A stretch of 64,000 bases of DNA from Fibrobacteria bacterium (GTDB lineage: Bacteria; Fibrobacterota; Fibrobacteria; UBA11236), in NCBI GenBank assembly GCA_041746255.1, contig JBGTHM010000115.1, positions 64,620 through 128,619 on the forward strand. The letters are read 5' to 3'. The position numbers and the translations under genes were made by a program. The notes under the pieces were generated by a model, which searched no databases, was not told the DNA's origin, and was given only the letters and a program-made list of their open reading frames with translations. Positions 13,852 through 55,724 of the stretch are shown one piece after another; the stretch's first letter is position 1; each line of letters begins with the position of its first letter.

Positions 13852-13884
13852 AGTCACCTATCCCCATCCCATGATGGGATTATT

Positions 13885-15246: not shown

Positions 15247-15293
15247 GCTATCGCCTCCCGGAGCGTTCGCGCCTTGACGCGAACGCCTTTAAC

Positions 15294-17270: not shown

Positions 17271-17504
17271 ATTATGTCTCCCCTCCCCTGATTGCATCTA
17301 CGCCTGGTCTGGACGGCACCGGATTGCTCCGGGCGGAAATGCCGTCTTTCCCGATTTATGCCTGCGAGTCCTATCCGTTCATATGATATACCACGCAAGC
17401 ACTCGAATTCATCCTTTGTGTTATTTGAACCCAAGAAAAAATCCGGTAATTTTTCTAGCTTCACCCTCTAAAATATCAAATTTGGAACCTGGAGGACAGA
17501 GCTT

Positions 17505-29780: not shown

Positions 29781-29802
29781 GGTTCTCAGCGCGTTTTACC
29801 GG

Positions 29803-29925
29803 TTACCTATGGATGAGGATGCCTTTAATCAGCACCCGATCACGGGATGAATCGGGTTGGTTGCGCATGATGTAATCATCTCCGAAGAATCCTTCGCAAA
29901 AGATTTCCTGGTCGGTTTTTTTCAT
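29803..29925 (-). pseudogene. 40-codon N-terminal remnant of the pseudaminic-acid-biosynthesis-associated methylase
   Basis: MKKTDQEIFCEGFFGDDYIMRN resembles the (T/S)EQE-F-W-GEFG--Y--RN start of that family as recalled. It keeps a GGGGGA RBS and sits between spsF and pseG. Confidence 0.65.
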
Positions 29926-29950
29926 GGCATCCCCCCGGGCGCACCCTGGA

Positions 29951-31833: not shown

Positions 31834-32049
31834 GGAGAGCCCGCCCAGGCTCGACCGCCCATTTTTCCGCCACGGTCTTTTTTGGGGTATTTAAACATGC
31901 ATTCGACCGTTTAATCGCAAAAACCGCGAACTTCTCCAAGCGAGGGTTGCAGTCAATTCTATTACGACATTCACCGCCAAGTCAACCCGACGGTTGCGGC
32001 AGTCGTGCCGGTAATACTAGAATGAACGGGTGGCAGCATGAGGATGGAT

Positions 32050-33135: not shown

Positions 33136-33169
33136 TCCCGCATATCCTCACTATTGGAGATAGAGAGAA

Positions 33170-34081: not shown

Positions 34082-34098
34082 GGGCCTGTAGCCTTACC

Positions 34099-35307: not shown

Positions 35308-35330
35308 ACCCGCTCCTTAGCCTATCGTCC

Positions 35331-36476
35331 TTACCGGTTTTCCCGCGCCTCGAAATCCCAGATATTATCCTTGATCCAATTCCCGCGGTCATCCTTCGAC
35401 CAGACCCGCTTGTCCCGGAAGGTATCGGCTATCCGGTCGAATTCCGCTTCGGTCATATCCACGTATTCGAGCCAACCGGCCAAATCGCCCGGCTTGACGT
35501 GGTCGTATTTACGTACCATCTCGATTCCGGTTTCGCGGCTCATGTATCCGGTGCGGATATCCTTGGAGGCGTGATCCGAGGCGCGGCCGTAGCCGAATTT
35601 GATGTACTTCATATAGTCGTGGAGTCCGTTTTCGTGTAAATCGTCCAGGTTCGACATGGTGCGATAAGTCCGGTCAAAGGGTTGGCGCGCTTTTTCGAAA
35701 CCGAACTTATCCACCATCAATTCCGTTTGCTTATTGGGATCCCATTTGAAAAAGTTGCCGACGTAAATACCCCGGACGCCGGTTTCGGCGAATTCCTCGT
35801 CGGTGGGCATGCGCAGCCAGAGCAAATCCTTCTCCGTCAGCCCCTCTTCACCGCCGATCATGTCCTCCCAAGTGAACCCACGCAAATCATGCTCCAGGAC
35901 CATGCGCTTGTTGTACTCCACGTAATCATCGGGAGAGTGCATACCCGATATGTCCCACACCGTTTCGCCCCACACCACGATGGGGATGCGGAATTTCACC
36001 GCCAGCGCCATGGGCATTATCTTGATACCGGCGTGGTTATGCCAATTCATGTCGCCCATTTTCTTGAAGCACATCCGGTTCAATTTGATCAAGGTCTCCA
36101 CGCTGGGACCGAATTGCAGATGATCGACGTTGAAGACCTTCCGCATGCGATCCAGGTTGGCCTGGCCTTCGGGATAATAACGGTTGCCGTGGTAGGTGAC
36201 GAGCAACGGGTTCAATCCGCAGATGTTCTTGACGACATGCGTCTGCCACCAACTGTCCTTGCCTCCGCCCACGGGAATGATACAGTCATAGCGGCTTTGT
36301 CCCGCATCTGCGGCCTCTTCGACGATGGACAAGAATTTTTTCTCCCTTTGCTTCCATTGGTCGGGAGTGATCGTCTCCATTTCATCGGCGACGCGGCAGG
36401 CGCTGCAAATTCCCTCGTCGTCGACGAGCAAATTCACGGCGATTTCAGGGTATACGCAGCGTTTGCAGTAGTTCAT
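35331..36476 (-). CDS. N-acetyl sugar amidotransferase (PseA/WbuX/PtmG family)
   Basis: N-terminal CKRC...CSAC, PP-loop GGGKDS, KFGYGRA and SKDIRTG. Start moved to ATG 36476 (ATGA overlap, GGGAGGG RBS). Confidence 0.9.
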   Translation of the reverse strand: MNYCKRCVYPEIAVNLLVDDEGICSACRVADEMETITPDQWKQREKKFLSIVEEAADAGQSRYDCIIPVGGGKDSWWQTHVVKNICGLNPLLVTYHGNRYYPEGQANLDRMRKVFNVDHLQFGPSVETLIKLNRMCFKKMGDMNWHNHAGIKIMPMALAVKFRIPIVVWGETVWDISGMHSPDDYVEYNKRMVLEHDLRGFTWEDMIGGEEGLTEKDLLWLRMPTDEEFAETGVRGIYVGNFFKWDPNKQTELMVDKFGFEKARQPFDRTYRTMSNLDDLHENGLHDYMKYIKFGYGRASDHASKDIRTGYMSRETGIEMVRKYDHVKPGDLAGWLEYVDMTEAEFDRIADTFRDKRVWSKDDRGNWIKDNIWDFEARENR

Positions 36477-37306
36477 CGTGTTCCCTCCCGGCCGGTCACG
36501 GTCTTGATCAACGGGGACCGCACGTCTATTCCCTGCTTGTGCAGGAAAGTCTTCGCAAGGTGCACGCTGTTTTCGGTGTATTGGAAAATATTCGCGGCCG
36601 CGACGGCTCGGGCGCCGCCCGATTCGATGGCCTCCTGAAAGTGCGTCCACTCCCCCACCCCGCCCAATGCGATGACGGGGATGCGTACCGCATCGGTTAC
36701 CGCGCGTATCAATTCGATATCGTATCCCCGGCGCATTCCGTCGCGATCGATGGAATTCAACAAAATCTCACCGGCTCCGGCGCTCTCGACTTCCCGGGCC
36801 CATTCCACCGCCGTTTTTTTCGTCGCCGTTTTTCCGCCGTCGATAAAAACCTCCCACCCGCCGCTGCCCTCGACGCCGCGCACGTCGATGGAAACCACCA
36901 CGCATTGGGAGCCGAATTCCCGGGCTGCCGCGGATATGAAGCCGGGATCCCGGAACGCCTGTGAATTCACGCTTACCTTGTCGGCACCCGCCTTCAATCG
37001 TTGCCTCACCTGGTCCAAGGTGCGTATACCGCCGCCGACGGTCAGGGGCATAAAACAATTCTTTGCGATATCCACCATGATTTCTTCGAATTCCGCGCGG
37101 TTGGGATAATTCAAATCTTCGCGGCGCAGGTCATATTTGGCTTCCCTGCTGATATCCAGATAGATCAACTCGTCGGCGCTCCAATTGCTGAGCCGTCCCA
37201 CAATCGTCGAGGCGTTTCCCAATGCCTGGTACCGCGAAAAACCTTTGCTTTGCACGACCATGCCGTTACGCATCAAAACCACGGGAATCAGTCTGATTTT
37301 CAGCAT
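36473..37306 (-). CDS. hisF: HisF-like cyclase paralog of a glycan-amidation module (WbuZ-type)
   Basis: RLIPV, DELIYLDI, PLTVGGGI, FGSQCVV and GEILLNSIDRDG; clustered with the amidotransferase rather than with his genes. Confidence 0.85.
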   Translation of the reverse strand: MLKIRLIPVVLMRNGMVVQSKGFSRYQALGNASTIVGRLSNWSADELIYLDISREAKYDLRREDLNYPNRAEFEEIMVDIAKNCFMPLTVGGGIRTLDQVRQRLKAGADKVSVNSQAFRDPGFISAAAREFGSQCVVVSIDVRGVEGSGGWEVFIDGGKTATKKTAVEWAREVESAGAGEILLNSIDRDGMRRGYDIELIRAVTDAVRIPVIALGGVGEWTHFQEAIESGGARAVAAANIFQYTENSVHLAKTFLHKQGIDVRSPLIKTVTGREGTR

Positions 37307-37941
37307 ATGTTGGCGAAATTCCGGAGGAGTTGCAATCCGGCCTCCTGGCTTTTTTCCGGGTGGAATTGCACGCCGAAAACGCGGTTGCGGCCTACGCAGG
37401 CCGTAACAGGTCCGCCGTAGTCGCAGATTCCCAATCGGTCCTCGGGGTTGTCGGGTAAAAAATGAAAACTATGGACGAAATAGAAGGTGGGTTCCAAGTC
37501 CATTCCCGTAAAAAGCGCGCAGTCCCCCTGGACGGAAACCTGATTCCACCCCATATGGGGGATGGAAAGCTTCCCATCGTCGGGCTCGATGGGCGTAACC
37601 TTGCCGGGAATGATGCCAAGCCCCGGATGCGAACCGAATTCCATTCCGGTTGTCGCCAATACTTGCATGCCTACGCAAATCCCCAGGAAAAATTTTTCCC
37701 GGTGCAGGACTTCGCGCCGAATCGCTTCGGTGAAGCCACTCTTGCTGAGCTTATCCATGACGTTACCGAAAGCTCCGACGCCCGGCAGGACGATATGCGA
37801 TTCCGCTTCCAATTGCTCAGGTCTTTCCACATCGGCAACGGTAACGCCCAAATGCCGGAAGGCATTTCGCACGGATGCGTAATTACCCGAACCATAATCC
37901 ACTAAGGCCACACGATGCATCGAATCATTCCCGGTGCTCAC
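37300..37941 (-). CDS. hisH: HisH-like glutaminase paralog (WbuY-type)
   Basis: DYGSGN, LPGVGAF, GICVGMQ, PHMGWN, YFVHS and QFHPEKS. Confidence 0.9.
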   Translation of the reverse strand: MSTGNDSMHRVALVDYGSGNYASVRNAFRHLGVTVADVERPEQLEAESHIVLPGVGAFGNVMDKLSKSGFTEAIRREVLHREKFFLGICVGMQVLATTGMEFGSHPGLGIIPGKVTPIEPDDGKLSIPHMGWNQVSVQGDCALFTGMDLEPTFYFVHSFHFLPDNPEDRLGICDYGGPVTACVGRNRVFGVQFHPEKSQEAGLQLLRNFANIC

Positions 37942-43427: not shown

Positions 43428-44324
43428 ATGGCCTTTCTGGAAAAAATCCGCAAAAGTATCCCGACTTTGTCCTATGAATTGTTCCCACCCAAAAACCCCA
43501 CGGGCTGGGGTACCTTGTATGCCACGCTATCCGAAATCGCCAAGCAAGCTCCGGACTATATCTCGGTAACCTATGGTGCCGGGGGATCTACCCGAGACAA
43601 AACCGTGGATATGGTCGGTCGCATTCAAAATGAATTGGGTATCGAATCCATGGCCCACCTGACTTGTGTGGGCCATTCCCGCGATGAACTGCAAAATCTG
43701 CTGCAGTCGCTGCAAAAGGTCGGAATCCGCAACGTCCTGGCCCTTCGGGGAGATCCACCAAAAGGTGACACGGCTTTCAAGCCTCATCCCGATGGCTTTG
43801 CCCATGCCAGCGATTTGATTGAATTCATCCGCGAGCAATTCACCTTTAATTTAGGCTGTGCCTATTACCCCGAAAAACACGTCGAAGCGCCTACCCTCGA
43901 AGAAGATATCCTCCATCTCAAATTGAAGCAGGATAGAGGCGCTGACGTAGCCATTAGCCAGCTATTCTTCGATAATGAAAACTTCTACCGGTTCCGCGAC
44001 CTGGCCTATAAGGCCGGAGTGCGAATTCCCCTGGTCGCCGGAATCATGCCGGTACTCGAATTGAAACAGCTGCCTCGCTTTCAACAACTTTCCGGATGCG
44101 TAGTTCCCGAGAAATTGGTTGCCGCGCTGGGTGAAGGTCAAAATGAAGAAATACAGGAGCGGGGCATCGAATACGCCACCCGACAATGCCTCGATTTGCT
44201 TGCCAATGGCATTGCCGGAATCCATCTCTATTGCCTCAACCGTTACCAATCCTCCGTGCGCATAACCGAGAACTTGCGACGGGAAGGTCATTTCCGGGTC
44301 GAGTCCGACTCTCCGGAGAGTTGA
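43428..44324 (+). CDS. metF: 5,10-methylenetetrahydrofolate reductase
   Basis: SYELFPPK, SVTYGAGG, AHLTC, LALRGDPP, SQLFFD and GIHLY. Confidence 0.95.
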   Translation: MAFLEKIRKSIPTLSYELFPPKNPTGWGTLYATLSEIAKQAPDYISVTYGAGGSTRDKTVDMVGRIQNELGIESMAHLTCVGHSRDELQNLLQSLQKVGIRNVLALRGDPPKGDTAFKPHPDGFAHASDLIEFIREQFTFNLGCAYYPEKHVEAPTLEEDILHLKLKQDRGADVAISQLFFDNENFYRFRDLAYKAGVRIPLVAGIMPVLELKQLPRFQQLSGCVVPEKLVAALGEGQNEEIQERGIEYATRQCLDLLANGIAGIHLYCLNRYQSSVRITENLRREGHFRVESDSPES

Positions 44325-44328
44325 TTTC

Positions 44329-45618
44329 GTGAGCCAGGCGAAAGAGCCACAGGCTCCCAATCGCCTTCACGCCTTACTTCAGCGGCTTCGCCGCGAAGGC
44401 GGGGAAATCCTGGAGTTGACCGAATCCAACCCCACCCATGTCGGTTTTACCTACCCCGAAACCGAAATTCTTGCCGCCCTGAGCAGCCCCGAAAGTTTGA
44501 GCTATGCTCCCGAACCCGCCGGACTCCTCGTTGCACGCAAGTCCGTTGCCGAGTACTATGCTGAAATCCGTTCCGACCCTCAAGCGAAACACATGGGAAA
44601 TGCGGAACAAACGACCCAAACCTATCCGCCGGTTCGGCCCGAAAACTTGATCCTCACGTCCGGAACTTCGGAAGCCTATGGTTTTTTATGCAAACTTTTA
44701 TGCAAACCGGGTGATGAGATATTGATCCCCTCGCCATGCTATCCCTTGCTGGATTGCCTGTCCGAACTGGAGCATGTTTGCCTCGTTAAATATCCTTTGG
44801 CCTTTCACCCGGAACAAGCGCGGCCCTGGACCCTGGATTTAAATGCCCTGGAAAATTCCATCTCGACTCTCACTCGAGTACTCGTCGTAGTGAATCCCAA
44901 CAATCCTACCGGGCATTATTTCACCGCTGACGAAGCCCGCGCATTACTAAAAATCGCCGCGCGCCATGACCTTGCCGTCGTGGTGGACGAAGTTTTTCGC
45001 GACTATGCCTTGCTAGGGAAGCCGGAACAGTATTTCGCGGCCGAGTCCACACAGGTTTCTCTGACCCGCCCCCTATTCACTTTGAACGGCTTTTCCAAAA
45101 CCCTGGGTCTGCCACAACTGAAATTGGCATGGATACATATCTCCGGTGAAGAAGCGCTGATCCGTCCCTACCATGAGAGACTGGAATTCATTGCCGATGC
45201 CTACCTCTCGGTCAATTCACCGGTTCAGAACGCCGCCGCCGGGTTATTTCGATTACGGGGCCAATTACAAAACCAGATTCTCTCGCGACTTCGCACAAAC
45301 TTGAAAACCGCCACCGATATGGTCGGCGAATACAGCGCCGTTCAAATTCTACCTCCCGAAGGAGGATGGCAACTCATCCTGCTCTGCGATGTTGCCATGG
45401 ATGATGAGACCCTTTCCCTAATCTTACTGGAAGAATGCCGGATTTTTGTCCATCCCGGCTATTATTTCGATTTGCCACACCCCTGCGGCTTGGTCGTGAG
45501 CCTCCTGTTACCGCCCGAGCGATTTCGCGAGGGTTTGACACGGCTGCTTATGCGAGTTCAAGGTTTAACCGAACCGCCTCAAAACAACTCCCTTCTTCAA
45601 CCGGGAAACGCATCATGA
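44329..45618 (+). CDS. PLP-dependent aminotransferase class I/II
   Basis: LTESNPT, TSGTSEAY, VNPNNPTG, DEVF and FSK-x2-GLPQLKLAW. Confidence 0.88.
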   Translation: MSQAKEPQAPNRLHALLQRLRREGGEILELTESNPTHVGFTYPETEILAALSSPESLSYAPEPAGLLVARKSVAEYYAEIRSDPQAKHMGNAEQTTQTYPPVRPENLILTSGTSEAYGFLCKLLCKPGDEILIPSPCYPLLDCLSELEHVCLVKYPLAFHPEQARPWTLDLNALENSISTLTRVLVVVNPNNPTGHYFTADEARALLKIAARHDLAVVVDEVFRDYALLGKPEQYFAAESTQVSLTRPLFTLNGFSKTLGLPQLKLAWIHISGEEALIRPYHERLEFIADAYLSVNSPVQNAAAGLFRLRGQLQNQILSRLRTNLKTATDMVGEYSAVQILPPEGGWQLILLCDVAMDDETLSLILLEECRIFVHPGYYFDLPHPCGLVVSLLLPPERFREGLTRLLMRVQGLTEPPQNNSLLQPGNAS

Positions 45619-46511
45619 TTTCCACCAACGCTCCATCGAAAAGTACCACCGACATCGGAACCAATCATTCCAACAAAGCCCGGGTAAGGCGCTACTATGC
45701 CGCCGCCACCGAAGATTATCTGAAATACTATGAAGCCGACTGGCATCACCATATGCATTACGGCTTCGAACGTGATTTACCCAAGGGAGGCAATCCCACC
45801 GAGAACCTGGTGCGTTACCTGGCCGACACGGGAGGCATCACCGCGGGCGCCCGGGTGTTGGATGCCGGATGCGGCGTGGGCGGCTCCGCGATTTGGTTGG
45901 CGCAGAACCGAGGCTGCGCAAGCGTGGGCATCACTTTGATGGAACCGCAAGCCCGCCTGGCCCGGGGATTCGCCGAGCGGAAATCTCCTCCGGCCCAGGC
46001 TCGCTTTTCCGCCATGGATTTTACCGCTCCGGCTTTCAAACCCGGGTCTTTCGATTTTGTTTGGGCGGTGGAGAGCTTCGATCATGCCTTCGACAAAGCC
46101 GCCTTTATCGCGGAAATGGCGAAGTTGCTGTCGCCGGGCGGAAGAATCGTCATCGCGGATGGGTTTCGGGCCGACCGCGAATTCACCCCCCGCGAAACCC
46201 GGCAATACTCCCGGTTTCTGGAAGGTTGGGCGGTGCCTCACCTCTGCACCCGGGAAGAAATGCGCGGCTATGCCGCCGAGGCATCGCTGAAAGTGGCCTT
46301 GCACGAGGATATCAGCGCCGACGTGGCGCCGCATGCCTTCGCAATTTATCGCTTTGGATTGTTTTTCGGGCCTTTACGGTTTCTGGGGCATAAACTGGGA
46401 TTGACCAGCCGGGAAAAACTAGGTAACGCCTGGGCTACCTATCATCAGTACACCACTTTTCGTAAAGGGCTGTGGACATATGATGTTTTTGTATTGGAAA
46501 AAGCCGGTTAG
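45615..46511 (+). CDS. Class I SAM methyltransferase (tocopherol/sterol/N-methyltransferase-like)
   Basis: HMHYG, VLDAGCGVGGS, GITL, FDFVWAVES and PGGRIVIAD. ATGA overlap at 45615. Confidence 0.85.
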   Translation: MISTNAPSKSTTDIGTNHSNKARVRRYYAAATEDYLKYYEADWHHHMHYGFERDLPKGGNPTENLVRYLADTGGITAGARVLDAGCGVGGSAIWLAQNRGCASVGITLMEPQARLARGFAERKSPPAQARFSAMDFTAPAFKPGSFDFVWAVESFDHAFDKAAFIAEMAKLLSPGGRIVIADGFRADREFTPRETRQYSRFLEGWAVPHLCTREEMRGYAAEASLKVALHEDISADVAPHAFAIYRFGLFFGPLRFLGHKLGLTSREKLGNAWATYHQYTTFRKGLWTYDVFVLEKAG

Positions 46512-46720
46512 GGGATATTCCCGCGAGCCCGGGTGACGGTGATATGGTTGAATCCTGACTGCAGAGCTGTAACGTCAGGGCACACCATGGCCGTAACGTG
46601 CCGGATTCGTCGCTTTTACTAAAAATTGACAGGCCCTGTAACCTTTTCCACCCCTTCCCGGACTAAAACCCACATTTCCATCCTGGTTTAAGTGCTTCCC
46701 GGTGAAGCAGGGGTATCGGT

Positions 46721-49165
46721 ATGCCATTCAGTGAAAATTCACCCATTCTGGTTCTTGGAGGCGACGGGTATTTAGGGTGGCCCCTTTCCCTGCATCTTGC
46801 CTTGGAACATCCTTCCAGGCCGGTTATCATGGCCGATAATCATCTCAGACGCAGACTCGTGAAGGAAACGGGCGGCGAAAGCCTGCTTCCCATTTTATCT
46901 CCATCCGGGCGCATAAAGGCCGCGCGGGATATCCACTCCGTCGACAACCTTGAGTTCATCCATCTCGACGTAAACTCTCCGGTCCTGGAAGCGCTCATCC
47001 GGGAACGGAAACCGGGAACGGTCTACCACCTGGCCCAACAATGTTCCGCGCCTTATTCCATGCGCGGAAGCCGGGAAGCGCTGTTCACCCTCCGGAACAA
47101 TGAGGAAGGTAACATGCGTGTATTATGGGCCGTGCGGCGTCATGTTCCGGAGGCGCATATCGTCAAGCTGGGGACCTTCGGAGAGTACGCGAAGTCGGGC
47201 TTGGATATCGCCGAAGGATATTTCCGTCCCGAATACCGGGGACGCATCGCGGAACGGCCTGTGCCTTATCCCAGGGAGGCGGACGACTTCTACCATGCCT
47301 CCAAAATCAACGACAGCAATTATATCTCCGTGGCCTGCAGAAAGTGGGGGCTGCGCGTCTCCGATATCATGCAATCGACGGTTTTCGGTTCGTGGACGGA
47401 GAAAACCGGGGCCGCGCATGAGCTCTTTACGCGCCTCGACTATGACGAATGTTTCGGCACCGTGGTGAACCGGTTTCTCGCCCAGGTGGTACGGGGGAAA
47501 TCCCTGAGCGTCTATGGAACCGGCCACCAACGCACGGGCCTGATGGCCCTTTCCGATTCCATCCAATCTTTGGTTTCCCTATGCGACAAAGCGCCGTCGG
47601 TCGGCACCCACCGGGTCATCAATCATGTAACGGAAGACTCCTTTTCGGTAATCGAACTCGCGGAAACGATGCGCGGCATTGCCATGGAGGAAGGCTTTTT
47701 GGTCACAATTGAAAGAGGCGCCCACGACCCAAGAGGAGAGACAGCCCCCGCGAAGATGGAATATCGCATTGAAAGACGGTATGTTTCGGAGAGCTTCGAG
47801 TCCGCCGGAATGAGAGAGGTTATTTCCAAAACCTTTCGGATGGTTCTGCCTTACAGACACCGCGTAAATGCGGCTCTTTTCGCCCCCAAGACCCTATGGA
47901 ACGGTCATTCCCCGGTTTTTGAAAAGTCGGAATCGTCCCCGCATGAATTCCCGGATGCAAACTTTCGCCTGCGCCATTTTCCCTATGGCCGCATCAACTT
48001 GAATCCCGGAACCTTGGGTTCCCCATCGTTGGATACCCTTGAAGCCATGGGGAGATTTCATGAGGATGAGCGTTTGGGGCATCCGCTAGGGCAGTACCAG
48101 CATGGGCGCGAGGTTTTGGACCGGTGTTTATCCCTTATTCCCGTGCTATGGAAAACGAATTCCCATTTGGCGACCGTTTCGGCAAGCGCCACCCAATTCA
48201 CCAACCTGTTGGCGCTTTCCATGGCACGCTCCTTCCCGAACCGTTCCAGACCGATACGCATCGTGACCACGCCCCACGAACATCAAGGTGGTATCAGCGC
48301 ATTTGAAGCCCTGTCCGACTTCGAAGTTCTTTACCTGTCCGCCCTGGAAATGGCGGACAATGAGACCTTCGTGGATTTCCTTCGCAAACACCGTCCCGAT
48401 GCGGGTTTCTATTCCCATATCGCCTATGATTCGGGTTGGCGGTTTCCCGTTGAGAGCTGGGCCTCAAGCATGAAGGCTATTTTACCCGACTCCCTGGTTA
48501 TTCTTGATCTTTGTCAGTCGCTGGGATTGTTGGATCCGCCTTTCGAATATGCCGACGTCCTGTTTACCAGTTCCCATAAATGGCTGTTCGGACCAAAGGG
48601 AGCGGGTATACTCTGGACCAACGAGCGTTTCCGAAGGAAAATAGGGGCGTTGCAATGGTCGGGAGAATCGTTGTCGTTTCAACCCGGCGAATCGGGCTTC
48701 GGCCCCTCGGGCGGGATGGACTTCTCCATTTTCTCCGGACTGGAAGCCACGCTGCGTCTTCATCAATTCGTGGGAAACAAAACCATATTTGCAAGAAGTT
48801 CGGCCCTTTCCGCCTATTTCCGAAAAAATCTGCGCGACATACTCGAACATGCCGGCATTACCCATGAATTCATGGACTCCCCGAAAGGCTTTCCCATCGC
48901 CTCAGCCGTTTTATCGGTCGATTTCGTGGATTTGGATCCCTACCCCGTCTATATCCACCTGGAGGAAAACGGGGTGCATGTGAAATGCATCAAGGGAAAA
49001 CAGATAGCCGGAGCGACCCGGAATCTGCTTCGTTTCGGGTTCCCCTACTATGAAGACGAAAAACGGTTGGATACGGTTTTGGCTTGTATGGAAGCCTATC
49101 TTTCCTCCTGCCGGGAACCAATCCTTGCACCGAACCGGCATCCGCATTTGGCCAGGGAGAATTGA
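46721..49165 (+). CDS. sqdB: Fusion of UDP-sulfoquinovose synthase-like SDR (aa ~1-393) and class V PLP C-S lyase/desulfurase-like domain (aa ~415-800)
   Basis: SqdB/SQD1 motifs GGDGYLGW, SAPYSM, VKLGTFGEY, FYHASK and RLDYDECFGTVVNRF...VYGTG. Class V motifs NLNPGTLG, HEHQGG, DLCQSLG and SSHKWLFGPKG (K620). One continuous frame. Confidence 0.88.
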   Translation: MPFSENSPILVLGGDGYLGWPLSLHLALEHPSRPVIMADNHLRRRLVKETGGESLLPILSPSGRIKAARDIHSVDNLEFIHLDVNSPVLEALIRERKPGTVYHLAQQCSAPYSMRGSREALFTLRNNEEGNMRVLWAVRRHVPEAHIVKLGTFGEYAKSGLDIAEGYFRPEYRGRIAERPVPYPREADDFYHASKINDSNYISVACRKWGLRVSDIMQSTVFGSWTEKTGAAHELFTRLDYDECFGTVVNRFLAQVVRGKSLSVYGTGHQRTGLMALSDSIQSLVSLCDKAPSVGTHRVINHVTEDSFSVIELAETMRGIAMEEGFLVTIERGAHDPRGETAPAKMEYRIERRYVSESFESAGMREVISKTFRMVLPYRHRVNAALFAPKTLWNGHSPVFEKSESSPHEFPDANFRLRHFPYGRINLNPGTLGSPSLDTLEAMGRFHEDERLGHPLGQYQHGREVLDRCLSLIPVLWKTNSHLATVSASATQFTNLLALSMARSFPNRSRPIRIVTTPHEHQGGISAFEALSDFEVLYLSALEMADNETFVDFLRKHRPDAGFYSHIAYDSGWRFPVESWASSMKAILPDSLVILDLCQSLGLLDPPFEYADVLFTSSHKWLFGPKGAGILWTNERFRRKIGALQWSGESLSFQPGESGFGPSGGMDFSIFSGLEATLRLHQFVGNKTIFARSSALSAYFRKNLRDILEHAGITHEFMDSPKGFPIASAVLSVDFVDLDPYPVYIHLEENGVHVKCIKGKQIAGATRNLLRFGFPYYEDEKRLDTVLACMEAYLSSCREPILAPNRHPHLAREN

Positions 49166-49169
49166 ATCC

Positions 49170-49739
49170 ATGTGGGAATCGCTCATCAATGCCTGTCGGC
49201 GTGTCATTCCGCCCCTCGGACCTTATCCTGATTTCCAACAGGTGGCCGATGCGATGAACCTGCTTACCCCTGTGGTTTCCAACTACCGGGTGGAAGGCGA
49301 GGGCATCCCCTATGGCCGGTACCTGCTTTTCCAAGACTCCGATGATCTTTTCAACGTGCAGGTGGATGTCTTTTCCAAAGGCTATACCGGCGCCATCCAT
49401 TGCCATGAAACCTGGGGTTGCTTCTGGGTGCTCAGGGGTAACCTTCATGTTTCCGATTGGATACCCGAGAAGGACGGCTATGTCCGTATACGAGCATCGA
49501 CATTGGGAACCGGAAGCGGTCAATGCTTCTGCCCCCCATCGCCGGATTGGCATAAAACCGCTACGCCCCTAGAAGGGGATCAGGTGGTGAGTCTGCATAT
49601 TTACGGATCCGGCTATAACCTCGACAGGGGAATCTACCTGGACGACTCGAAAATGCCCCGTACCGGCTTACGCAGCCCATTCAAGGATCTCGCCCTGGTT
49701 ACCTCCCACATGCGAACGGTAGCAGGGCCTTCTGCGTAA
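49170..49739 (+). CDS. Cysteine dioxygenase-family thiol dioxygenase (cupin)
   Basis: YGRYLL (Arg-type), IHCH plus WH forming a 3-His triad, and SLHIY. GGGAG RBS; starts 4 nt after the fusion-gene stop. Confidence 0.85.
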   Translation: MWESLINACRRVIPPLGPYPDFQQVADAMNLLTPVVSNYRVEGEGIPYGRYLLFQDSDDLFNVQVDVFSKGYTGAIHCHETWGCFWVLRGNLHVSDWIPEKDGYVRIRASTLGTGSGQCFCPPSPDWHKTATPLEGDQVVSLHIYGSGYNLDRGIYLDDSKMPRTGLRSPFKDLALVTSHMRTVAGPSA

Positions 49740-51276
49740 ACCACGTCCGCATTCCCAACCGGAAAGCCTCGAGAACACCGGAAAGGTAGCGCGGGGAGCG
49801 CTGCTCTATTTTACGGGCTTCGGGGGCAAGCTGGCGGGACCCCTTTTCCTGATTATCGCCTCCCGCTTTTATGGACCCGATCAACTGGGAGCTTTTTTCG
49901 GGGCCTGGGCATGTTTACAAGTCGCGATGAAGATCTCATCCGGCGGACTGTGCGAGGGCACGACGCTCTTTGTTCCCCGCCATTTTGAAGAAGGTAGAAG
50001 CGGCATCGTGATTCCCGGCGCAGTGTATGGAGCTCTTTCCACGGCATTTTATGGCGGCATGCTGGTTTCCTTGACCTTCGTGGGTTTGGGATACGCAGGG
50101 CTGGCATACCTGGATGGCTATCACTCAAACTTGCTTTCGCCCGATTTGCGCGCTTCCCTGAGCATATTGCTTCCGATTATCGTATTGGGTTTCCTTGTCC
50201 AATATTCCCTTTCGGCGCTCAAAGGCATTGTCGTATTCAAATACGACGTCTGGATCAACAGCTATGCCAGGGAATTCCTTCCCCTGGCACTGGCGTTGAT
50301 TCTGCTGGCGGGTCCGGAGTGGGGTATGACCCTGGCATGGATTCATCTGGTAACCTATACGGTACTGGCTCTTTCGTCTCTTATCGCAATGTCCCGTCAT
50401 TTCAGTTGGAGAGGAATATTGGTTTGGAAAGGATGGGACAAACGGTTCCTGGCCTTTTGCCTGCCCCTGGGGGCCAACGATTTGCTGCTTTTCCTGGTTC
50501 AGGAGCTCGACATGCTCATGCTCGTCATTCTCGGAGCCGTGGAAGGTTTCGAACTCGCCTTTTACGGCGTGGCGGCGAGTATCGCTTTCGGATTCCGCAT
50601 GTTGCGGCTGAATTTCATGAAAGTATTCCAGCCCTTGGCATCGCGATTGACGGCCCAAGGCGACATGCGGGAGCTGGAGCATGTATTCCATACCACTTGG
50701 CGCTGGAGCCTTTATGCAATCCTGCCTTTCGCGGGAGTTCTGCTCCTGGCTCCGGAGACCCTGCTGGCGATCTACCACCCCGATTACGCCTCCTACGCGT
50801 CCTGCCTGCTGCTCTTGGCCGTAGGTCCGCTGGTGAACGGAATTTTCGGATTGAATACGGCCCTACTGCTGGCTTCCCAAAGAACCGGCCTGCATTTGGC
50901 CAACAATCTGGTCACGGTGGTCGTCAATGCCGGGCTGAACCTTGCCCTGATTCCGAGGTTCGGCGTTTACGGCGCCGCGGCGGCCACCGCCACGTCCATG
51001 GTTTGTGTGCAGGCTCTGACCGCCTTGCAAGTTCGCCGGTTGCGCATGCCGCTCTTTTCCCTGCGTGCGGCGGCAGGTCCCCTGTCGGCCTTTGGCGCGG
51101 CCCTTCTTGTATTCCTGCCAATGCGAATCCACCTCGCGCCCGGGGATTGGGAACAAGGGTTGTCGGCAGCAGGGTTCCTGGTGGTTTTCGCCGTCATAGC
51201 CCGTTATCGAAATGCACCGGAAGCAACTCCGGCTTCGCGACCGGGTCTTGCCATAAAAGAGAGGGTGAGCGAATGA
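49732..51276 (+). CDS. Wzx/MOP-superfamily oligosaccharide flippase
   Basis: Polytopic membrane protein with VARGA...ASRFYGPDQLG, LAFYGVA and LNLALIPRFGVYGAAAAT. The frame is open from 49723; the first ATG is 49927, but flippase-like sequence begins earlier, so CTG 49732 is proposed. Confidence 0.82.
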   Translation: MRKPRPHSQPESLENTGKVARGALLYFTGFGGKLAGPLFLIIASRFYGPDQLGAFFGAWACLQVAMKISSGGLCEGTTLFVPRHFEEGRSGIVIPGAVYGALSTAFYGGMLVSLTFVGLGYAGLAYLDGYHSNLLSPDLRASLSILLPIIVLGFLVQYSLSALKGIVVFKYDVWINSYAREFLPLALALILLAGPEWGMTLAWIHLVTYTVLALSSLIAMSRHFSWRGILVWKGWDKRFLAFCLPLGANDLLLFLVQELDMLMLVILGAVEGFELAFYGVAASIAFGFRMLRLNFMKVFQPLASRLTAQGDMRELEHVFHTTWRWSLYAILPFAGVLLLAPETLLAIYHPDYASYASCLLLLAVGPLVNGIFGLNTALLLASQRTGLHLANNLVTVVVNAGLNLALIPRFGVYGAAAATATSMVCVQALTALQVRRLRMPLFSLRAAAGPLSAFGAALLVFLPMRIHLAPGDWEQGLSAAGFLVVFAVIARYRNAPEATPASRPGLAIKERVSE

Positions 51277-52082
51277 ATCCACGGTTTTCGGTAGTCATGC
51301 CCTATTTCAATGAACGGGAATACATCCTTCATACCCTGGAATCCTGGAAGGGGCAAAACAGGCTTCCGGATCAATTGATCCTGGTCGATAACAGCTCCAC
51401 GGACGGTACCGAAACCCTCTGCCGCGATTACCTGCAGGACTGTCCGCTCTTCGAAATCCTGTATCTTCGCGAGCCCCGGGCCGGCAAGACGCATGCCCTC
51501 GAAAGGGGCTGTCATTTCGCCAAGGGGGAGTTCATCGCTTTCAGCGACGCCGATACGTATTATCCGCCGCATTATCTGGAGCTTTGCGATGCCCTGGCGC
51601 GGGAATCCCCCGCCGACATCGTGGCCTTCATGGCTCAGGCCCTGGAGGCCGGACCGGAGGACCCCGCCGTGCGCAAGCGACTTATGCGCACGGTTTTCTG
51701 GTCAAAGTTACTGACCCGCAAAGCGTTTACCGGAAACGCTGGCCATGTTTTCCGGCGTGCGGCCTTGGAAAAAGCGGGAGGGTTTTCGACCCGGCATTGG
51801 GACCTCATGTATGCGGACCACGAAGTCATGCACCGGATGTTCAAGGTGGGCCGTTCCCTTTACCACAAGGACCTCTGGTGCCTGGCCTCGGAAAGAAGAG
51901 CGGACCGCTCCCATTTGCGCTGGGACCTGTGGGAGCGGATGGTTTACCGGTATACCCCCCATATTCTGGGAGATTGGTATTTCTATTCCTTTCTGAGGGG
52001 GCGATTACTGAAAAAAGGCATGGCCATCACGAATCTGCGGAGACGGGATTGGGAGGAGCGGCAAACGACTGCAAAGACCTGA
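51273..52082 (+). CDS. Family 2 glycosyltransferase
   Basis: SVVMPYFNE, ILVDNSSTDGT, FSDAD and FRRAALEKAGGF. ATGA overlap with the flippase. Confidence 0.9.
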   Translation: MNPRFSVVMPYFNEREYILHTLESWKGQNRLPDQLILVDNSSTDGTETLCRDYLQDCPLFEILYLREPRAGKTHALERGCHFAKGEFIAFSDADTYYPPHYLELCDALARESPADIVAFMAQALEAGPEDPAVRKRLMRTVFWSKLLTRKAFTGNAGHVFRRAALEKAGGFSTRHWDLMYADHEVMHRMFKVGRSLYHKDLWCLASERRADRSHLRWDLWERMVYRYTPHILGDWYFYSFLRGRLLKKGMAITNLRRRDWEERQTTAKT

Positions 52083-52251
52083 AAAAAAAGGATCAGCGCC
52101 CAATCCGAAGCGTAGGCCGCCGTCAAGTAGACTGGCGTTTCTGAGGTGAAGAAGTCGTTTGCGATTGGTATTGCGGGACGCAAACCTACCGTATTGCACC
52201 CAAGATGCTGGTGGAATACGCTTTAGGCTTCCACGCGCTCAAAGGGTAACC

Positions 52252-53124
52252 TCAGCCCCGCACCCCGTTCACATAGGCCGCGGTGATGGCGTCGCGGGGC
52301 GCTTCGAAGATCTGCGCCGTTTCTCCCTGCTCTATCAGGCTTCCGCAACCCTCTCGCATCCAGAACACCATCACCTCGTCGGCGATGCGGCGGGCCTGGG
52401 CCAGGTTATGGGTGACGATGACGACGGTATAGCGCTCCTTGAGGCCGGAAATCATATCTTCCACCACGCCGCCGGCAATCGGATCCAGCGCGCTGCAAGG
52501 CTCGTCCAGCAACAGCACCTCGGGTTTGAGAGACAAGGCGCGGGCGATACACAAGCGTTGCTGCTGCCCGCCGGAGAGATTGAGCGCGGAAGCTCCCAAC
52601 CTGTCCTTCACTTCGTTCCACAGCCCGACGGAGCGCAGCGAGGCTTCGGTGATTTCCTCGATGTCCATCCGTTCCGAAATCCCGTTTTCCTTGAGTGGGA
52701 TTTCGAAATTGCGGCGGATGGAAAAGGGAAATGGATTGGGTTTCTGGAATATCATGCCTACGCGACGGCGCAAGGAAACCACGTCCGTGGAATTGTCCAG
52801 AACGTCGTCGCTCCCTACCCGAATATGGCCGGTAACGCGACAGCCGGAAATGAGATCGGTAAGGCGGTTGAAGCACATGAGATAGCTGGACTTGCCGCAT
52901 CCCGAAGGACCCACCAATGCCGTGATGCGGCCTTTACCCACCATCGCGGACACGGCTTGGAACGCGGGCTTGTCTCCATACCATAGGGAGAGGTTTGTCG
53001 AGCATAAGGCCGACGGGGTATCCGAGGGATGGCCCGCTGACGCGACGGCGTGGCAGGGTGTCTCCAGGAAATCCTCCGGATAAGGACCCCCGTTCCGGTG
53101 GGAAGGGTGGGAATCAGTTATCAT
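52252..53124 (-). CDS. pstB: Phosphate ABC transporter ATP-binding protein
   Basis: GPSGCGKS, GMIFQKPNPF, LSGGQQQRLCIAR, DEPCSALDP and VTHNLAQA. Confidence 0.93.
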   Translation of the reverse strand: MITDSHPSHRNGGPYPEDFLETPCHAVASAGHPSDTPSALCSTNLSLWYGDKPAFQAVSAMVGKGRITALVGPSGCGKSSYLMCFNRLTDLISGCRVTGHIRVGSDDVLDNSTDVVSLRRRVGMIFQKPNPFPFSIRRNFEIPLKENGISERMDIEEITEASLRSVGLWNEVKDRLGASALNLSGGQQQRLCIARALSLKPEVLLLDEPCSALDPIAGGVVEDMISGLKERYTVVIVTHNLAQARRIADEVMVFWMREGCGSLIEQGETAQIFEAPRDAITAAYVNGVRG

Positions 53125-54017
53125 GCGCGTTTCCTTCCGGTGAAGCGTTTTCCCATGGCCATCGCGGTGATGCCGTTGATTATCAACAGCAGACCGACCA
53201 GTACCAGCGCCGAAGCATAAGCGTTGGTATCGCCTCCGGGAACATTCATGGATAGATCGAAGATATGTATTGAAAGCGATCGGCCCGAATCGAACAACGA
53301 GCCGGGCATGCGGTCCACATAGCCGCTGGTGAAGATGAGCGCGGCGGTTTCGGCCAGCGCGCGGCCCACGCCCAAGGCCAACCCCACCGTAATGCCGGGA
53401 AGCGCGAGCGGAAGCAGCACACGGAACAGCATGCCCGCGCGCGACAGCCCGAGGGCGGCGGCTCCCATGCGGAATTCCGACGGAACGGCCCGGAATTCCT
53501 CTTCTACGACGCGTATCAGAATGGGAAGCACCATGCAGGCCAAGGTCAGGCCGCCGGAAAGTATGGAAAAGCCCATGCCGAAAAGTTTGCTGAACAGCGC
53601 GTTGCCGAAAAGCCCGAAAACGATGGAAGGCATGGCGGCCAACACTTCAAGGCTGCGTCGCAACAATTGCGCGAGATTGGACTCTTCGCGCGTGAACCCG
53701 GCGAGATAAGCCGCCGCCGCAACTCCCAGCGGAACGGCCGTCGCCATGCATACCGATAGGATAAGCAAGGTGGAAACCCAGATGGAGCGGATGCCCCCTT
53801 CCCTACCCGCATTGACCGGATCGGCAAGCAGAAATTCCCAGGACAGCCCTCCCAGCCCTTGTCGCAGCAGGTCAAAAAGAATCCATAGGAAAAGGCCGGT
53901 TACGATTACGGCGGAGGCCCGGATTAAAAAACCGGCCAGGACGGACGACACCCTGCCAGATGTGCTCATCATGCGCGGCGGACGCAGGCGCTTCACAACC
54001 GGAATCGACTCAGGCAA
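53121..54017 (-). CDS. pstA: Phosphate ABC transporter permease
   Basis: GREGGI, PSIVFGLFG and GRALAETAAL. Start uncertain (TTG 54017 or ATG 53972). Confidence 0.9.
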   Translation of the reverse strand: MPESIPVVKRLRPPRMMSTSGRVSSVLAGFLIRASAVIVTGLFLWILFDLLRQGLGGLSWEFLLADPVNAGREGGIRSIWVSTLLILSVCMATAVPLGVAAAAYLAGFTREESNLAQLLRRSLEVLAAMPSIVFGLFGNALFSKLFGMGFSILSGGLTLACMVLPILIRVVEEEFRAVPSEFRMGAAALGLSRAGMLFRVLLPLALPGITVGLALGVGRALAETAALIFTSGYVDRMPGSLFDSGRSLSIHIFDLSMNVPGGDTNAYASALVLVGLLLIINGITAMAMGKRFTGRKRA

Positions 54018-54888
54018 AAGCGGGCCCCTTTCCGAAGCGATGGGAGGCGGCCACAAGGGCTATCGTAAGCAACGCCAACAGCAATCCGCCCATGAATAGC
54101 GCGGAGCGGTGGCCGTCCATGGCATAGGCCATTTCCAGGGCGATGTTGGCGGTTAACGTACGGACCGGATCGAAAAATCCCGTGGGAACCTGCACCACAT
54201 TGCCGGCCACCATGAGCACGGCCATGGTTTCACCCAGCGCCCTGCCGGCGCCGAGGATGATTCCAGCGATGATGCCCGGACGCGCGGAGGGAAGCACGAT
54301 GCGCCGGATAAGGCCCCAGCGCGTCATTCCCAACGAGGCGCCTGCCAGAATATGATCCCGGGGAACATTGGCGATACCGGAGTCGGCCAGGAGAGCGATG
54401 GTGGGAAGGATCATCAGCGCCAGAATAAGGATCCCGGCCAGCAGGCTCTGTCCGGGGGGCTGAATGCGACCCAGCAGCGGTACCAGCACCACCAACCCCC
54501 ACAAACCGTAGACCACCGAAGGGATTCCCGCCAGCAATTCGACCAGCCTGCGATAGGCCACGGCCATGGGCGCCGGTGCGTAATAACGGCAGAACAGCGC
54601 GGACAACACGCCCAACGGGGCCGCCAAAATCACGGCGCCCGTTGCGACAAACAAGGTGCCTGCCAGCATGGGCAACAGATTGAAGCGGTCTTGCAGCGGG
54701 TGCCATGAAGGGTCGGTGAAAAAACGGAAAGGGCCGATAGCGGCCAGTATGGGGAGGGATTCCATCGCGATGAAGGCCACGAGCATAAATGCCAGCGAGC
54801 CCGCCAGGACCCCCGCCCCACGCAGAGCCCAGGCCAGCACACGATCAATCCGTGATGGGAAGGAGGTGGAAGTTTTCAAGGAGGTCAT
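54010..54888 (-). CDS. pstC: Phosphate ABC transporter permease
   Basis: ELLAGIPSVVYGLWG, GRALGETMAVLMVAGN and TLTANIA. Confidence 0.92.
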   Translation of the reverse strand: MTSLKTSTSFPSRIDRVLAWALRGAGVLAGSLAFMLVAFIAMESLPILAAIGPFRFFTDPSWHPLQDRFNLLPMLAGTLFVATGAVILAAPLGVLSALFCRYYAPAPMAVAYRRLVELLAGIPSVVYGLWGLVVLVPLLGRIQPPGQSLLAGILILALMILPTIALLADSGIANVPRDHILAGASLGMTRWGLIRRIVLPSARPGIIAGIILGAGRALGETMAVLMVAGNVVQVPTGFFDPVRTLTANIALEMAYAMDGHRSALFMGGLLLALLTIALVAASHRFGKGPAFA

Positions 54889-55675
54889 GCACTTTCTCCG
54901 ATTGGGCGAATTCCAGGAATTCCTTAAGCAAACCCTGGGGCGACGATTTCACCACGAGATTCAAGGTGCGGGAGAGGGGAAAGGAACCGTCGCCGACACC
55001 GGTAAGAGTGGGCACAATACCGTTTAGAGCCAAACTCCTGATGGCCGCCTCACGGCCCATCGCGTATTCCGCCGCGCCGATGGACACATACCCCACCGCT
55101 CCCGGAATTCCCGCCACCGATTTGATACCCTGTTCATTGTCCCCGATAATCACATGGGCCTTCACGTCCGTGGAGGCCAATTTGAAATGGGACAGGAACA
55201 ACTCCAGCGTGGAACGGCCCTCCGCCTTGTTGATAACGGTTATCGGCAGGTCGGGACCGCCAAGTTCGCTCCAATTCGTAACGGCTCCGGAGAACGCGGC
55301 TTTCACCTGCGCGTCCGTCAAATCGCCCGTGGGGTTGTCGCGATGGGTGATGAGGGTAATGCCGTCCCGGGCGAGGGCGTAGGGAATGAGATCGCCTTCA
55401 TTCTCCTTCAAGTCGCGTGAAACCATGCCGATATCGCTCAACCCTTGCCGGCAATCGGCCATGCCGCGCGACGAGCCCCCCGTTTGCACGTCGATGCGCA
55501 CTCCCGGATGCAGCGATTCGAAGCGACGCGCGATTTCCCCGACCACCGGAGCCACCGTGCTGGAGCCGGTAATAACCAATTTCCCGGGTGATTCTCCGTT
55601 ACGCTCTCCCGATTGCGAACAACCCGCGGCCATCGAGAGGATCGCCAGGGTGAATGCCCACTGTAACCTTTTCAT
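54845..55675 (-). CDS. pstS: Phosphate-binding lipoprotein
   Basis: Lipobox AAGC, ITGSSTV, GGSSRG, DIGMVSR and ARDG. AAGGA RBS before ATG 55675. Confidence 0.9.
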   Translation of the reverse strand: MKRLQWAFTLAILSMAAGCSQSGERNGESPGKLVITGSSTVAPVVGEIARRFESLHPGVRIDVQTGGSSRGMADCRQGLSDIGMVSRDLKENEGDLIPYALARDGITLITHRDNPTGDLTDAQVKAAFSGAVTNWSELGGPDLPITVINKAEGRSTLELFLSHFKLASTDVKAHVIIGDNEQGIKSVAGIPGAVGYVSIGAAEYAMGREAAIRSLALNGIVPTLTGVGDGSFPLSRTLNLVVKSSPQGLLKEFLEFAQSEKVHDLLENFHLLPITD

Positions 55676-55702
55676 CGTAGTCCTTTTCATCAATCGCATA
55701 AT

Positions 55703-55724
55703 CATATGTAGATATCTTTATATG
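55703..55724. promoter_or_regulatory. ArsR/SmtB-type operator-like inverted repeat upstream of pstS
   Basis: CATATGTAGATATCTTTATATG matches its own reverse complement at 18 of 22 positions; AT-rich, between the ArsR-family gene and pstS. Confidence 0.65.

Follow-up and report, generated by a model that had tools for sequence, protein, structure and literature searches.

A second branch of the SqdB family, paired with a class V pyridoxal phosphate enzyme, and a candidate operon for a cysteine-derived sulfosugar in Fibrobacterota

INTRODUCTION

Sulfoquinovose is among the most abundant organosulfur compounds, and to our knowledge all known synthesis of this sugar runs through SqdB, SQD1, or Agl3 with sulfite as the sulfur donor. 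Here we analyzed a stretch of 64,000 nucleotides (nt), hereafter the window, from a Fibrobacteria bacterium (phylum Fibrobacterota; GenBank assembly GCA_041746255.1, contig JBGTHM010000115.1, positions 64,620 to 128,619 of the forward strand). It contains a four-gene operon whose first gene encodes an SqdB-like domain fused to a class V pyridoxal 5'-phosphate (PLP) enzyme, followed by genes for a thiol dioxygenase, a flippase-like membrane protein, and a glycosyltransferase of family 2 (GT2). The comparison defines a second, unstudied branch of the SqdB family, locked to a predicted cysteine-cleaving PLP enzyme that is either fused to it or encoded beside it.

Several described systems resemble parts of this operon. 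Desulfurases of the CsdA/SufS type, which are class V PLP enzymes, show a cysteine sulfinate desulfinase side reaction. C-DES of Synechocystis (PDB 1elq and 1elu) is an L-cystine C-S lyase that stands alone and serves Fe-S cluster supply, and EgtE and the carbon-sulfoxide lyase 8iry act in ergothioneine synthesis as class V PLP beta-lyases on S-substituted, oxidized cysteine. For the sugar-modifying half, one study reports that Agl3 without sulfite produces the intermediate UDP-4-keto-glucose-5,6-ene, calls the in vivo delivery of the sulfur donor to sulfoquinovose synthase unknown, and cites the complex of chloroplast SQD1 with ferredoxin-glutamate synthase, a precedent for a sulfur donor coming from a bound partner (PMC4388408). 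In that complex the partner is a different protein and the two are not fused.

RESULTS AND DISCUSSION

Operon organization and assembly support

The four genes are packed on the plus strand between positions 46721 and 52082, and their coordinates were checked against the open reading frames (ORFs) of the window. They are listed below with the evidence for each, where G026 is a genome of the same order as the window's genome and of another family.

46721..49165, plus strand: fusion of an SqdB-clade short-chain dehydrogenase/reductase (SDR) and a class V PLP lyase, 814 amino acids (aa) (ORF, domains, homologues, independent contig)
49170..49739, plus strand: thiol dioxygenase of the cysteine dioxygenase (CDO) family, Arg type, 189 aa, with no Pfam family (profile against PDB, structure model)
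49732..51276, plus strand: flippase-like membrane protein of the MOP superfamily, from a proposed CTG start at 49732 (Pfam MatE; G026 orthologue, E 2e-98)
51276..52082, plus strand: GT2 glycosyltransferase, 268 aa (Pfam Glycos_transf_2; G026 orthologue, E 2e-85, order kept)

Only 4 nt separate the fusion stop from the dioxygenase start (TGA, ATCC, ATG), and the GT2 start codon (ATG, 51276) shares 1 nt with the flippase stop, confirming the tight same-strand coupling described in the initial annotation of this DNA. The flippase frame is open from 49723, and its first ATG, GTG, or TTG lies at 49927, 187 nt past the dioxygenase stop, with the 68 codons upstream of this ATG encoding a conserved first membrane helix. 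In the G026 orthologue, the start codon is a GTG, and its exact counterpart in the alignment is CTG 49732; the flippase therefore either is initiated at that CTG, with an 8-nt overlap with the dioxygenase gene, or has been shortened N-terminally by loss of its start codon. Between 43000 and 52600, scans for promoters (5 sites versus 5.6 in shuffled sequences) and terminators (14 versus 12.9) gave none above chance.

A contig of 16,138 nt, made by an independent assembler from a run labeled as a hot-spring metagenome (X1, possibly the source sample), covers positions 46600 to 52200 with 0 differences and 0 gaps, and five short contigs from another run in that study match it perfectly wherever they overlap. 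This identity, together with the occurrence of such a fusion in 120 or more full-length homologues, shows that the fusion did not arise as an assembly artefact.

An obligate pair of SqdB-like and PLP enzymes

A homologue search with the fusion over 5.8 billion clusters gave 148 matches among 8000 scored candidates. The 120 that were listed are 666 to 900 aa long, share 39 to 56% identity with the query, and cover 79 to 99% of it; their names, where present, are "aminotransferase class V-fold," "selenocysteine lyase," or "UDP-sulfoquinovose synthase," and their sources include Spongiibacter, Zhongshania, Litorivivens, Chitinophagaceae, Cytophagaceae, Flaviaesturariibacter, a Pseudobdellovibrio metagenome-assembled genome (MAG), and the jakobid Andalucia godoyi. 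Altogether, the pair of SqdB-like and PLP domains was found in Gammaproteobacteria, Bacteroidota, Bdellovibrionota, Gemmatimonadota, the window's own phylum, and one jakobid eukaryote. Its occurrence is patchy: among 40 relatives of the window's genome (a count that takes in the unpublished genome G021, where nothing relevant matched), the fusion was present only in G026, where it is broken by a contig end, and it was not found in the same-genus genome G001, while 12 of 40 Spongiibacteraceae genomes carried it. The PLP profile matched 96 representatives of a library clustered at 50% identity with E 1e-30 or better, and the best 40 of these comprised 4 of fusion length (816 to 874 aa), 35 of 357 to 462 aa, and 1 of 548 aa, indicating that stand-alone PLP forms are more diverse than fusions.

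To describe the gene context, 58 loci of the PLP family were fetched, 3 from a scan of genome contigs and 55 from a second search; L098/L099, L128/L129, L131 to L133, and L116 to L120 are near-duplicates. The contig scan used motifs of the SqdB half, and among its 80 loci only L001 and L002 carried fusions and L005 a split pair, the rest forming an unpaired comparison set. An SqdB-like gene was present in 52 of the 58 PLP loci, and the remaining 6 have a PLP gene truncated where the contig stops, so that every informative locus (52/52) is paired. The two domains share a single reading frame in 31 of these loci, are separate same-strand genes (in both orders) in 18, and lie on opposite strands in 3. 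We infer from this constancy that the pair carries out a joint reaction requiring an amino acid.

A full-text literature search, with most subscription journals outside its coverage, found no paper on the fusion or the pairing, in line with the statement of the initial annotation that no SqdB of such architecture was known to it. The component enzymes are of known kinds; their obligate pairing, the separate SqdB clade, and the unnamed CDO subfamily (both below) have not been described before.

Some members have features of their own. The 874-aa homologue annotated in the non-photosynthetic A. godoyi (P0043; 46% identity, 97% coverage) is a full-length fusion and could be either a contaminant or a genuinely eukaryotic member. 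G042, the Bdellovibrio MAG from which L001 comes, has two copies of the fusion (C97:28703-29830 and C194:11306-12430, in open frames of 849 and 847 aa, respectively). In a subset of the fused loci (L109, L116 to L118, L120 to L122, L124, L127, L136, and partly L131 to L133), the fusion lies downstream of genes for a 494-aa membrane GT2, a 958-aa protein with TPR and YaiO beta-barrel regions, a DUF4838 protein, and an actin-like ALP protein, a set that looks like a synthase-dependent exopolysaccharide secretion system.

A separate SqdB clade with an altered active site

The N-terminal half of the fusion is as follows.

46721..47899, plus strand: SQD1/SqdB-like domain, residues 1-393 (G13-x-x-G16-x-x-G19, T152, Y191, H192, K195; clade-specific F153, D189, N197, T272)

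Residues 9 to 393 align with positions 3 to 383 of the 384 in the NCBIfam UDP-sulfoquinovose synthase model NF041015 at 318.5 bits, below the equivalog cut-off of 575, and five relatives score 316 to 355 bits. The half matches the SQD1 structures 1i24/1qrr at E 4e-64, with a Foldseek TM of 0.81 (normalized to the target), and T152, Y191, H192, and K195 correspond to T145, Y182, H183, and K186 of SQD1 when counted along the 1qrr alignment. The catalytic Tyr, His, and Lys are retained in 46 of 46 members of the paired clade. In fold, length, the G-x-x-G-x-x-G motif, and these four residues, the half is therefore like SQD1 of Arabidopsis, SqdB, and Agl3 of Sulfolobus, and it probably makes the same UDP-4-keto-glucose-5,6-ene intermediate. 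A structure model of the fusion had a pTM of 0.54, with low confidence at residues 154 to 197. No second SqdB was found in the window's genome.

A FastTree phylogeny was inferred from 124 distinct SqdB domains (129 sequences, with 5 identical ones merged), after sequences with fewer than 300 aligned positions or containing X, such as L103 and the frameshifted L119, had been dropped. The tree was rooted at the midpoint, its groups were defined by the feature that was counted, and the unpaired set was drawn from the tool's best 80, which are free of plant and cyanobacterial sequences. One branch with a support of 100 splits the 46 PLP-associated domains from the 78 unpaired ones. Split forms make up the deepest branches, and the window's domain is closest to that of L001 (61% identical). 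The two groups differ at the following positions, numbered as in the window.

D189: Asp in 46 of 46 paired, Ser in 78 of 78 unpaired (Ser180 of SQD1/Agl3, two residues before the catalytic Tyr)
F153: Phe in 38, Met in 7, and Ile in 1 of 46 paired; Met in 78 of 78 unpaired (Met146/Met145)
N197: Asn in 43 of 46 paired; His in 75 of 78 unpaired (His188)
T272: Thr in 46 of 46 paired; Arg in 78 of 78 unpaired (Arg263)
A157: Ala in 41 of 46 paired; Gly in 78 of 78 unpaired
Position 219: Ser, Ala, or Cys in paired; Gly in 78 of 78 unpaired

Thus, the window's enzyme is unlike SQD1, SqdB, and Agl3 in four replacements (Met146 to Phe, Ser180 to Asp, His188 to Asn, and Arg263 to Thr) and in a clade membership that always entails a PLP partner, fused or not. 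The Agl3 work describes S180A as impaired and M145A and R101A as inactive (PMC4388408), and a review gives the fingerprint of sulfoquinovose synthases as [ST]-M-G at the place where 4,6-dehydratases have an acid/base pair beside C5 and C6 (PMC8987622). The window has T-F-G after its catalytic Thr. Considering the position of this fingerprint together with the clade substitutions, the pocket next to C6 appears to be altered throughout the paired clade. Unchanged sulfite chemistry would not be expected to demand such changes, if the residue contacts deduced by alignment hold. The initial annotation was right in assigning the two domains, which the NCBIfam and Pfam profiles and the SQD1 structures confirm, but its SqdB label needs qualifying: the first domain is no ordinary SqdB, as it falls in a clade of its own whose members share invariant substitutions next to the catalytic Tyr and in the C6 pocket.

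At the position of Arg101 of SQD1/Agl3, the window has C108 (about 47042-47044). Paired members have Cys (29), Pro (9), Ala (7), or Gly (1) here and never Arg, and the 78 unpaired sequences have Pro (36), Arg (29), or Ala (13).

The class V PLP domain

The C-terminal half carries the residues expected of a PLP-dependent C-S lyase.

47933..49165, plus strand: class V PLP domain, residues 405-814 (H521, D596, Q599, S617, H619, K620, R771; C756 not conserved)

Residues of about 405 to 814 match Pfam Aminotran_5 at 48 bits. K620, which the initial annotation had named as the PLP lysine, is indeed the Schiff-base lysine within S-x-H-K-W, a motif that is invariant in 15 full-length homologues and 42 domain sequences. 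S617, H619, D596 (the Asp to the pyridine N), H521 (the His over the ring), and R771 (the Arg for the alpha-carboxylate) are likewise invariant and align with the motifs of C-DES. When a profile of the 42 sequences (alignment A3) was run against the PDB, C-DES (1elq) ranked first (E 1.3e-22 over 341 positions), followed by PvdN (E 3e-20) and then SufS. The top NCBIfam model was EgtE (TIGR04343; E 1.5e-12, 47.1 bits versus a cut-off of 400), while the SufS model gave 30 bits (cut-off, 475), and Foldseek placed cysteine desulfurases alongside the carbon-sulfoxide lyase 8iry.

Like C-DES, with which its E-H, D-x-x-Q-S, H-K-W, and carboxylate-Arg motifs align, this family lacks a catalytic cysteine, but identity is low and C-DES has no fused or adjacent partner. 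It resembles CsdA and SufS in fold and departs from them in that the persulfide cysteine is not conserved: the sole candidate, C756 (in K-C-I-K), is replaced by Tyr, Leu, or Phe in 5 of 42 members and aligns with Thr in C-DES. A persulfide-type cysteine desulfurase (NifS, IscS, SufS, or CsdA) was ruled out on this ground, and the domain is therefore read as a predicted lyase or desulfinase acting on an alpha-amino acid. The analogy with CsdA/SufS-type enzymes drawn in the initial annotation is not supported in that form, as the closest solved relatives are beta C-S lyases of S-substituted cysteines. EgtE and 8iry offer a parallel in being class V beta-lyases of this kind; besides the score far below the EgtE cut-off, they differ from the present domain in substrate, for which a sugar conjugate or cysteine sulfinate would be expected here.

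The thiol dioxygenase: an accessory to the pair

The second gene matched no Pfam or NCBIfam model, and Pfam CDO_I (PF05995) gave no match to it at E values up to 0.1 or anywhere in the window's genome. A profile of 47 family members run against the PDB nevertheless retrieved the 3-mercaptopropionate dioxygenase 6xb9 (E 2e-14) and rat and human CDO (E 1e-12 to 1e-9), and the top structural matches of a model with a pLDDT of 95.9 were thiol dioxygenases only (TM 0.76 to 6xb9 and 0.66 to CDO), with mercaptosuccinate, ergothioneine, PCO, and ADO enzymes also among them. The claim that this gene encodes a thiol dioxygenase was thereby borne out. Counted along the alignment, all of Tyr58 (Tyr or Trp in the family), Arg60, His86, His88, His140, Ser153, His155, and Tyr157 of rat CDO are retained. 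The key residues of the window's enzyme are R50, H77, H79, H128, S141, H143, and Y145, with H77, H79, and H128 equivalent to rat H86, H88, and H140, S141, H143, and Y145 to the rat triad Ser153-His155-Tyr157, and R50 to Arg60, and R50, H143, and Y145 are invariant in 47 of 47 members. The enzyme is like rat CDO (2b5h) and the 3-mercaptopropionate dioxygenases 6xb9 and 4tlf in its cupin fold, 3-His iron site, and Ser-His-Tyr triad, and it shares Arg60 with true CDO, where 3-mercaptopropionate dioxygenases have Gln. It is unlike both in its identity of ∼20%, the lack of a CDO_I match, Gly at the site of the cross-linked Cys93 of CDO, and its place beside SqdB-PLP genes. The family is small and unnamed, comprising 115 clusters, none with a Pfam domain. 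Since all the cysteine-binding residues of CDO are retained, oxidation of L-cysteine to cysteine sulfinate is a reasonable first step to predict for it.

Of 59 loci, counting the window and the 58 fetched, 11 have the dioxygenase (the window and 10 others), mostly split forms, and 48 lack it. The loci that have it fall in at least three lineages of the SqdB tree. Neither this dioxygenase nor Pfam CDO_I was found in the genomes of L002 (Zhongshania), L001 (Bdellovibrio MAG), or L005 (Gemmatimonadaceae), nor in any of the 40 Spongiibacteraceae genomes, 12 of which have the fusion. Considering these lineages, cysteine sulfinate cannot be the usual donor of the family, and the dioxygenase is an accessory to the SqdB-PLP pair rather than a constant partner. 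Within the window's phylum, 3 of 296 genomes matched it, and strong scores were confined to the two that bear the fusion (267 and 213 bits; the third, 60 bits). A survey of 401 Gemmatimonadota genomes found no dioxygenase and the PLP family only in G043 itself, with so few candidates scored per genome as to be uninformative.

Where the dioxygenase occurs, its position varies. In G026, it lies upstream of the fusion on the opposite strand, and the flippase and GT2 genes follow the fusion in the window's order, so that the four-gene set is conserved there. The dioxygenase gene directly follows the PLP gene in L119, L128, L140, L141, and L142. Split loci show the order cytochrome-P460-like gene, SqdB, PLP, 575- to 600-aa membrane protein, dioxygenase, and GT2, with the last two genes abutting or overlapping. 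The synteny of sqdB and dioxygenase genes, which the initial annotation had suggested looking for, recurs in G026 and elsewhere without being constant.

The multi-pass membrane protein of 575 to 600 aa encoded between the PLP and dioxygenase genes (L141:6637-8355, L137:2487-4217, L112:9104-10903, L134:9101-10888) has many invariant residues (alignment A5) and gave no match in Pfam or the PDB; by eye it looks like a GT-C-type transferase, an unsupported impression.

Proposed pathway and alternatives

Taken together, the SqdB-PLP pair probably puts cysteine-derived sulfur on a sugar by a so far undescribed route. The machinery shared with SQD1 suggests that a nucleophile is added to C6 of UDP-4-keto-glucose-5,6-ene, and the recurring thiol dioxygenase speaks for sulfur as this nucleophile. 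Because most members lack any CDO, the family in general probably draws on plain cysteine and makes a reduced C6-thio sugar; because the window's dioxygenase holds every cysteine-holding residue of true CDO, prior oxidation of the donor is favored for the window's operon. We therefore propose, tentatively and with slightly less than an even chance in our judgment, that the operon serves to produce and export a glycoconjugate whose quinovose bears sulfur at C6, the donor having been oxidized beforehand to cysteine sulfinate. The dioxygenase would convert L-cysteine to cysteine sulfinate, the SDR half, like SQD1 and Agl3, would convert UDP-glucose to UDP-4-keto-glucose-5,6-ene, and the PLP half would draw sulfur from the oxidized cysteine, so that sulfur would reach C6 already oxygenated. 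GT2 would then transfer the sugar, and the flippase would move the lipid-linked product outward, so that the sugar would end up on a lipid-linked or envelope glycan. In relatives without the dioxygenase, the same pair would take plain cysteine and yield a 6-thio sugar.

This proposal has two forms. The PLP half may free sulfite that the SDR half adds to give UDP-sulfoquinovose, which is unlikely when taken singly; or the sulfinate sulfur may add to the ene before the lyase cuts the C-S bond, giving UDP-6-sulfinoquinovose, pyruvate, and ammonia, which we consider decidedly unlikely. The former is the sequence of cysteine, cysteine sulfinate, sulfite, and UDP-sulfoquinovose put forward in the initial annotation, which stays plausible for the window's operon and fails as the general mechanism of the family, given the rarity of the dioxygenase. 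More broadly, a reading that we also consider unlikely, to about the degree of the first form, is that the SqdB-clade enzyme does without sulfite: an amino-acid sulfur (the cysteine thiol or, here, the sulfinate) would add to the ene, and the PLP lyase would cut on the amino-acid side to leave UDP-6-thioquinovose or UDP-6-sulfinoquinovose. Such a scheme parallels ergothioneine and ovothiol synthesis, in which the C-S bond is made first and a C-S lyase acts second. We know of neither sugar nucleotide in nature, and this chemistry, if real, would be an oxygen-dependent sulfosugar route and categorically new.

Several observations weigh against prior oxidation of the donor followed by sulfite or sulfinate chemistry at C6: the score of the SqdB half below the equivalog cut-off; F153, D189, and T272 in place of the Met, Ser, and Arg of all 78 unpaired SqdB; the limited distribution of the dioxygenase described above; the coupling of the dioxygenase gene to the GT2 gene, not the PLP gene, in L112, L130, L134, and L137; a thiol dioxygenase fold that accepts varied thiols (mercaptopropionate, mercaptosuccinate, and ergothioneine); and a residue search between dioxygenase-linked and dioxygenase-free SqdB and PLP sequences, which found no distinguishing position that includes the window, where a change of donor might be expected to leave a mark. 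Much of this suits the reverse order, in which the fusion would attach reduced cysteine sulfur to C6 and so make UDP-6-thioquinovose, with the lyase either cleaving an S-(quinovos-6-yl)cysteine adduct or freeing sulfide or persulfide, and the CDO-fold enzyme would then oxidize the sugar thiol to the sulfinate and perhaps on to the sulfonate. That order is the most parsimonious with the phylogeny, as the nearest SqdB domain comes from a genome without the dioxygenase (L001). It would also agree with PLP relatives (C-DES, the EgtE model, and 8iry) that cut S-substituted cysteines, and with a changed pocket (F153, D189, N197, and T272) that would suit a nucleophile other than sulfite. Against it, the dioxygenase retains Arg60 and Tyr58, the holders of the cysteine carboxylate in CDO, and a sugar thiol has no such group; the literature search found no paper on a related thiosugar route, and natural 6-thioquinovose is not known to us. 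On balance, oxidation of the sugar thiol is an unlikely but serious competitor to prior oxidation of cysteine.

A role for the PLP half outside sulfur supply is improbable. It could act on the sugar or form a C-C or C-N bond, by transamination of the 4-keto group or by addition of a PLP-stabilized carbanion to the 5,6-ene, with the dioxygenase as an unrelated neighbor. An SDR dehydratase with a PLP enzyme is a common pairing in deoxy-amino-sugar pathways, PvdN, the second-best solved match, is a non-sulfur enzyme, and the SDR half departs from the sulfoquinovose synthase fingerprint (PMC8987622). However, sugar aminotransferases belong to the DegT type, not class V, and the window has a genuine DegT gene at another place (30676-31833); neither the alpha-carboxylate Arg (R771) nor the S-x-H-K motif shared with C-S lyases and desulfurases varies in the family; and the recurrence of a thiol dioxygenase beside the pair in at least three separate lineages points to sulfur.

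Ordinary synthesis, in which the SDR half takes free sulfite from assimilatory sulfate reduction and the PLP half and dioxygenase only feed or regulate nearby cysteine metabolism, is the least probable reading and very improbable, since the 52/52 pairing in four arrangements across several phyla, the partner-specific clade, and the Asp189 and Thr272 seen in none of the 78 unpaired SqdB argue for a joint reaction, even though the genome has a NirA-family sulfite/nitrite reductase (784 bits) and Agl3, a proven synthase, likewise falls below the NCBIfam cut-off in control genomes (the model matched in both Synechococcus elongatus and Sulfolobus acidocaldarius, with only one passing). Owing to the same reductase, the earlier claim of independence from sulfate assimilation is not supported as it was worded.

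If the pair makes sulfoquinovose from cysteine, non-phototrophic producers have been overlooked under the database names of aminotransferase or selenocysteine lyase; should its products be thio- or sulfino-sugars, the sugar chemistry itself would be new. In both cases the question is directly testable, and cultured strains bearing the fusion exist, e.g., Zhongshania.

Flippase, glycosyltransferase, and surrounding genes

The flippase passed the Pfam MatE cut-off (28.6 bits versus 24.9) and failed that of MurJ (22.1 versus 27.4), and no Wzx-specific model matched it in the Pfam scan; it is best described as a MOP-superfamily protein, the name Wzx given earlier being more specific than these matches. 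The identification of GT2 was secure (Glycos_transf_2, 92.5 bits; cut-off, 23.3). A GT2 of some type occurs in 21 of 59 loci. Among the 58 fetched loci, the window's own GT2 has a weak match in L098/L099 only, and the flippase and the upstream MTHFR, class I/II aminotransferase, and methyltransferase genes have no counterpart, so that these genes are not part of the conserved core.

The operon is set in a surface-glycan region. A cluster of the nonulosonic-acid type at 28084-37941, which also includes a formyltransferase and a GT28-like gene, contains the following features.

29951-30679: CMP-sugar cytidylyltransferase
30676-31833: DegT aminotransferase
32038-33135: PseB-like Polysacc_synt_2 protein
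36473-37941: HisH/HisF-like pair

At 43428-46511, the MTHFR, class I/II aminotransferase (PatB/GntC-like), and S-adenosylmethionine (SAM)-dependent methyltransferase genes form a tight operon that ends 210 nt upstream of the fusion. On the other side, a pstSCAB phosphate transporter operon (52252-55705, minus strand) converges on the GT2 gene, with a hairpin and T-run at 52090-52106 between them; sulfolipids often stand in for phospholipids under phosphate limitation. Farther away, at 12331-17297 on the minus strand, PrkA, DUF444, and SpoVR genes form a three-gene operon, a conserved kinase module related to stress and sporulation.

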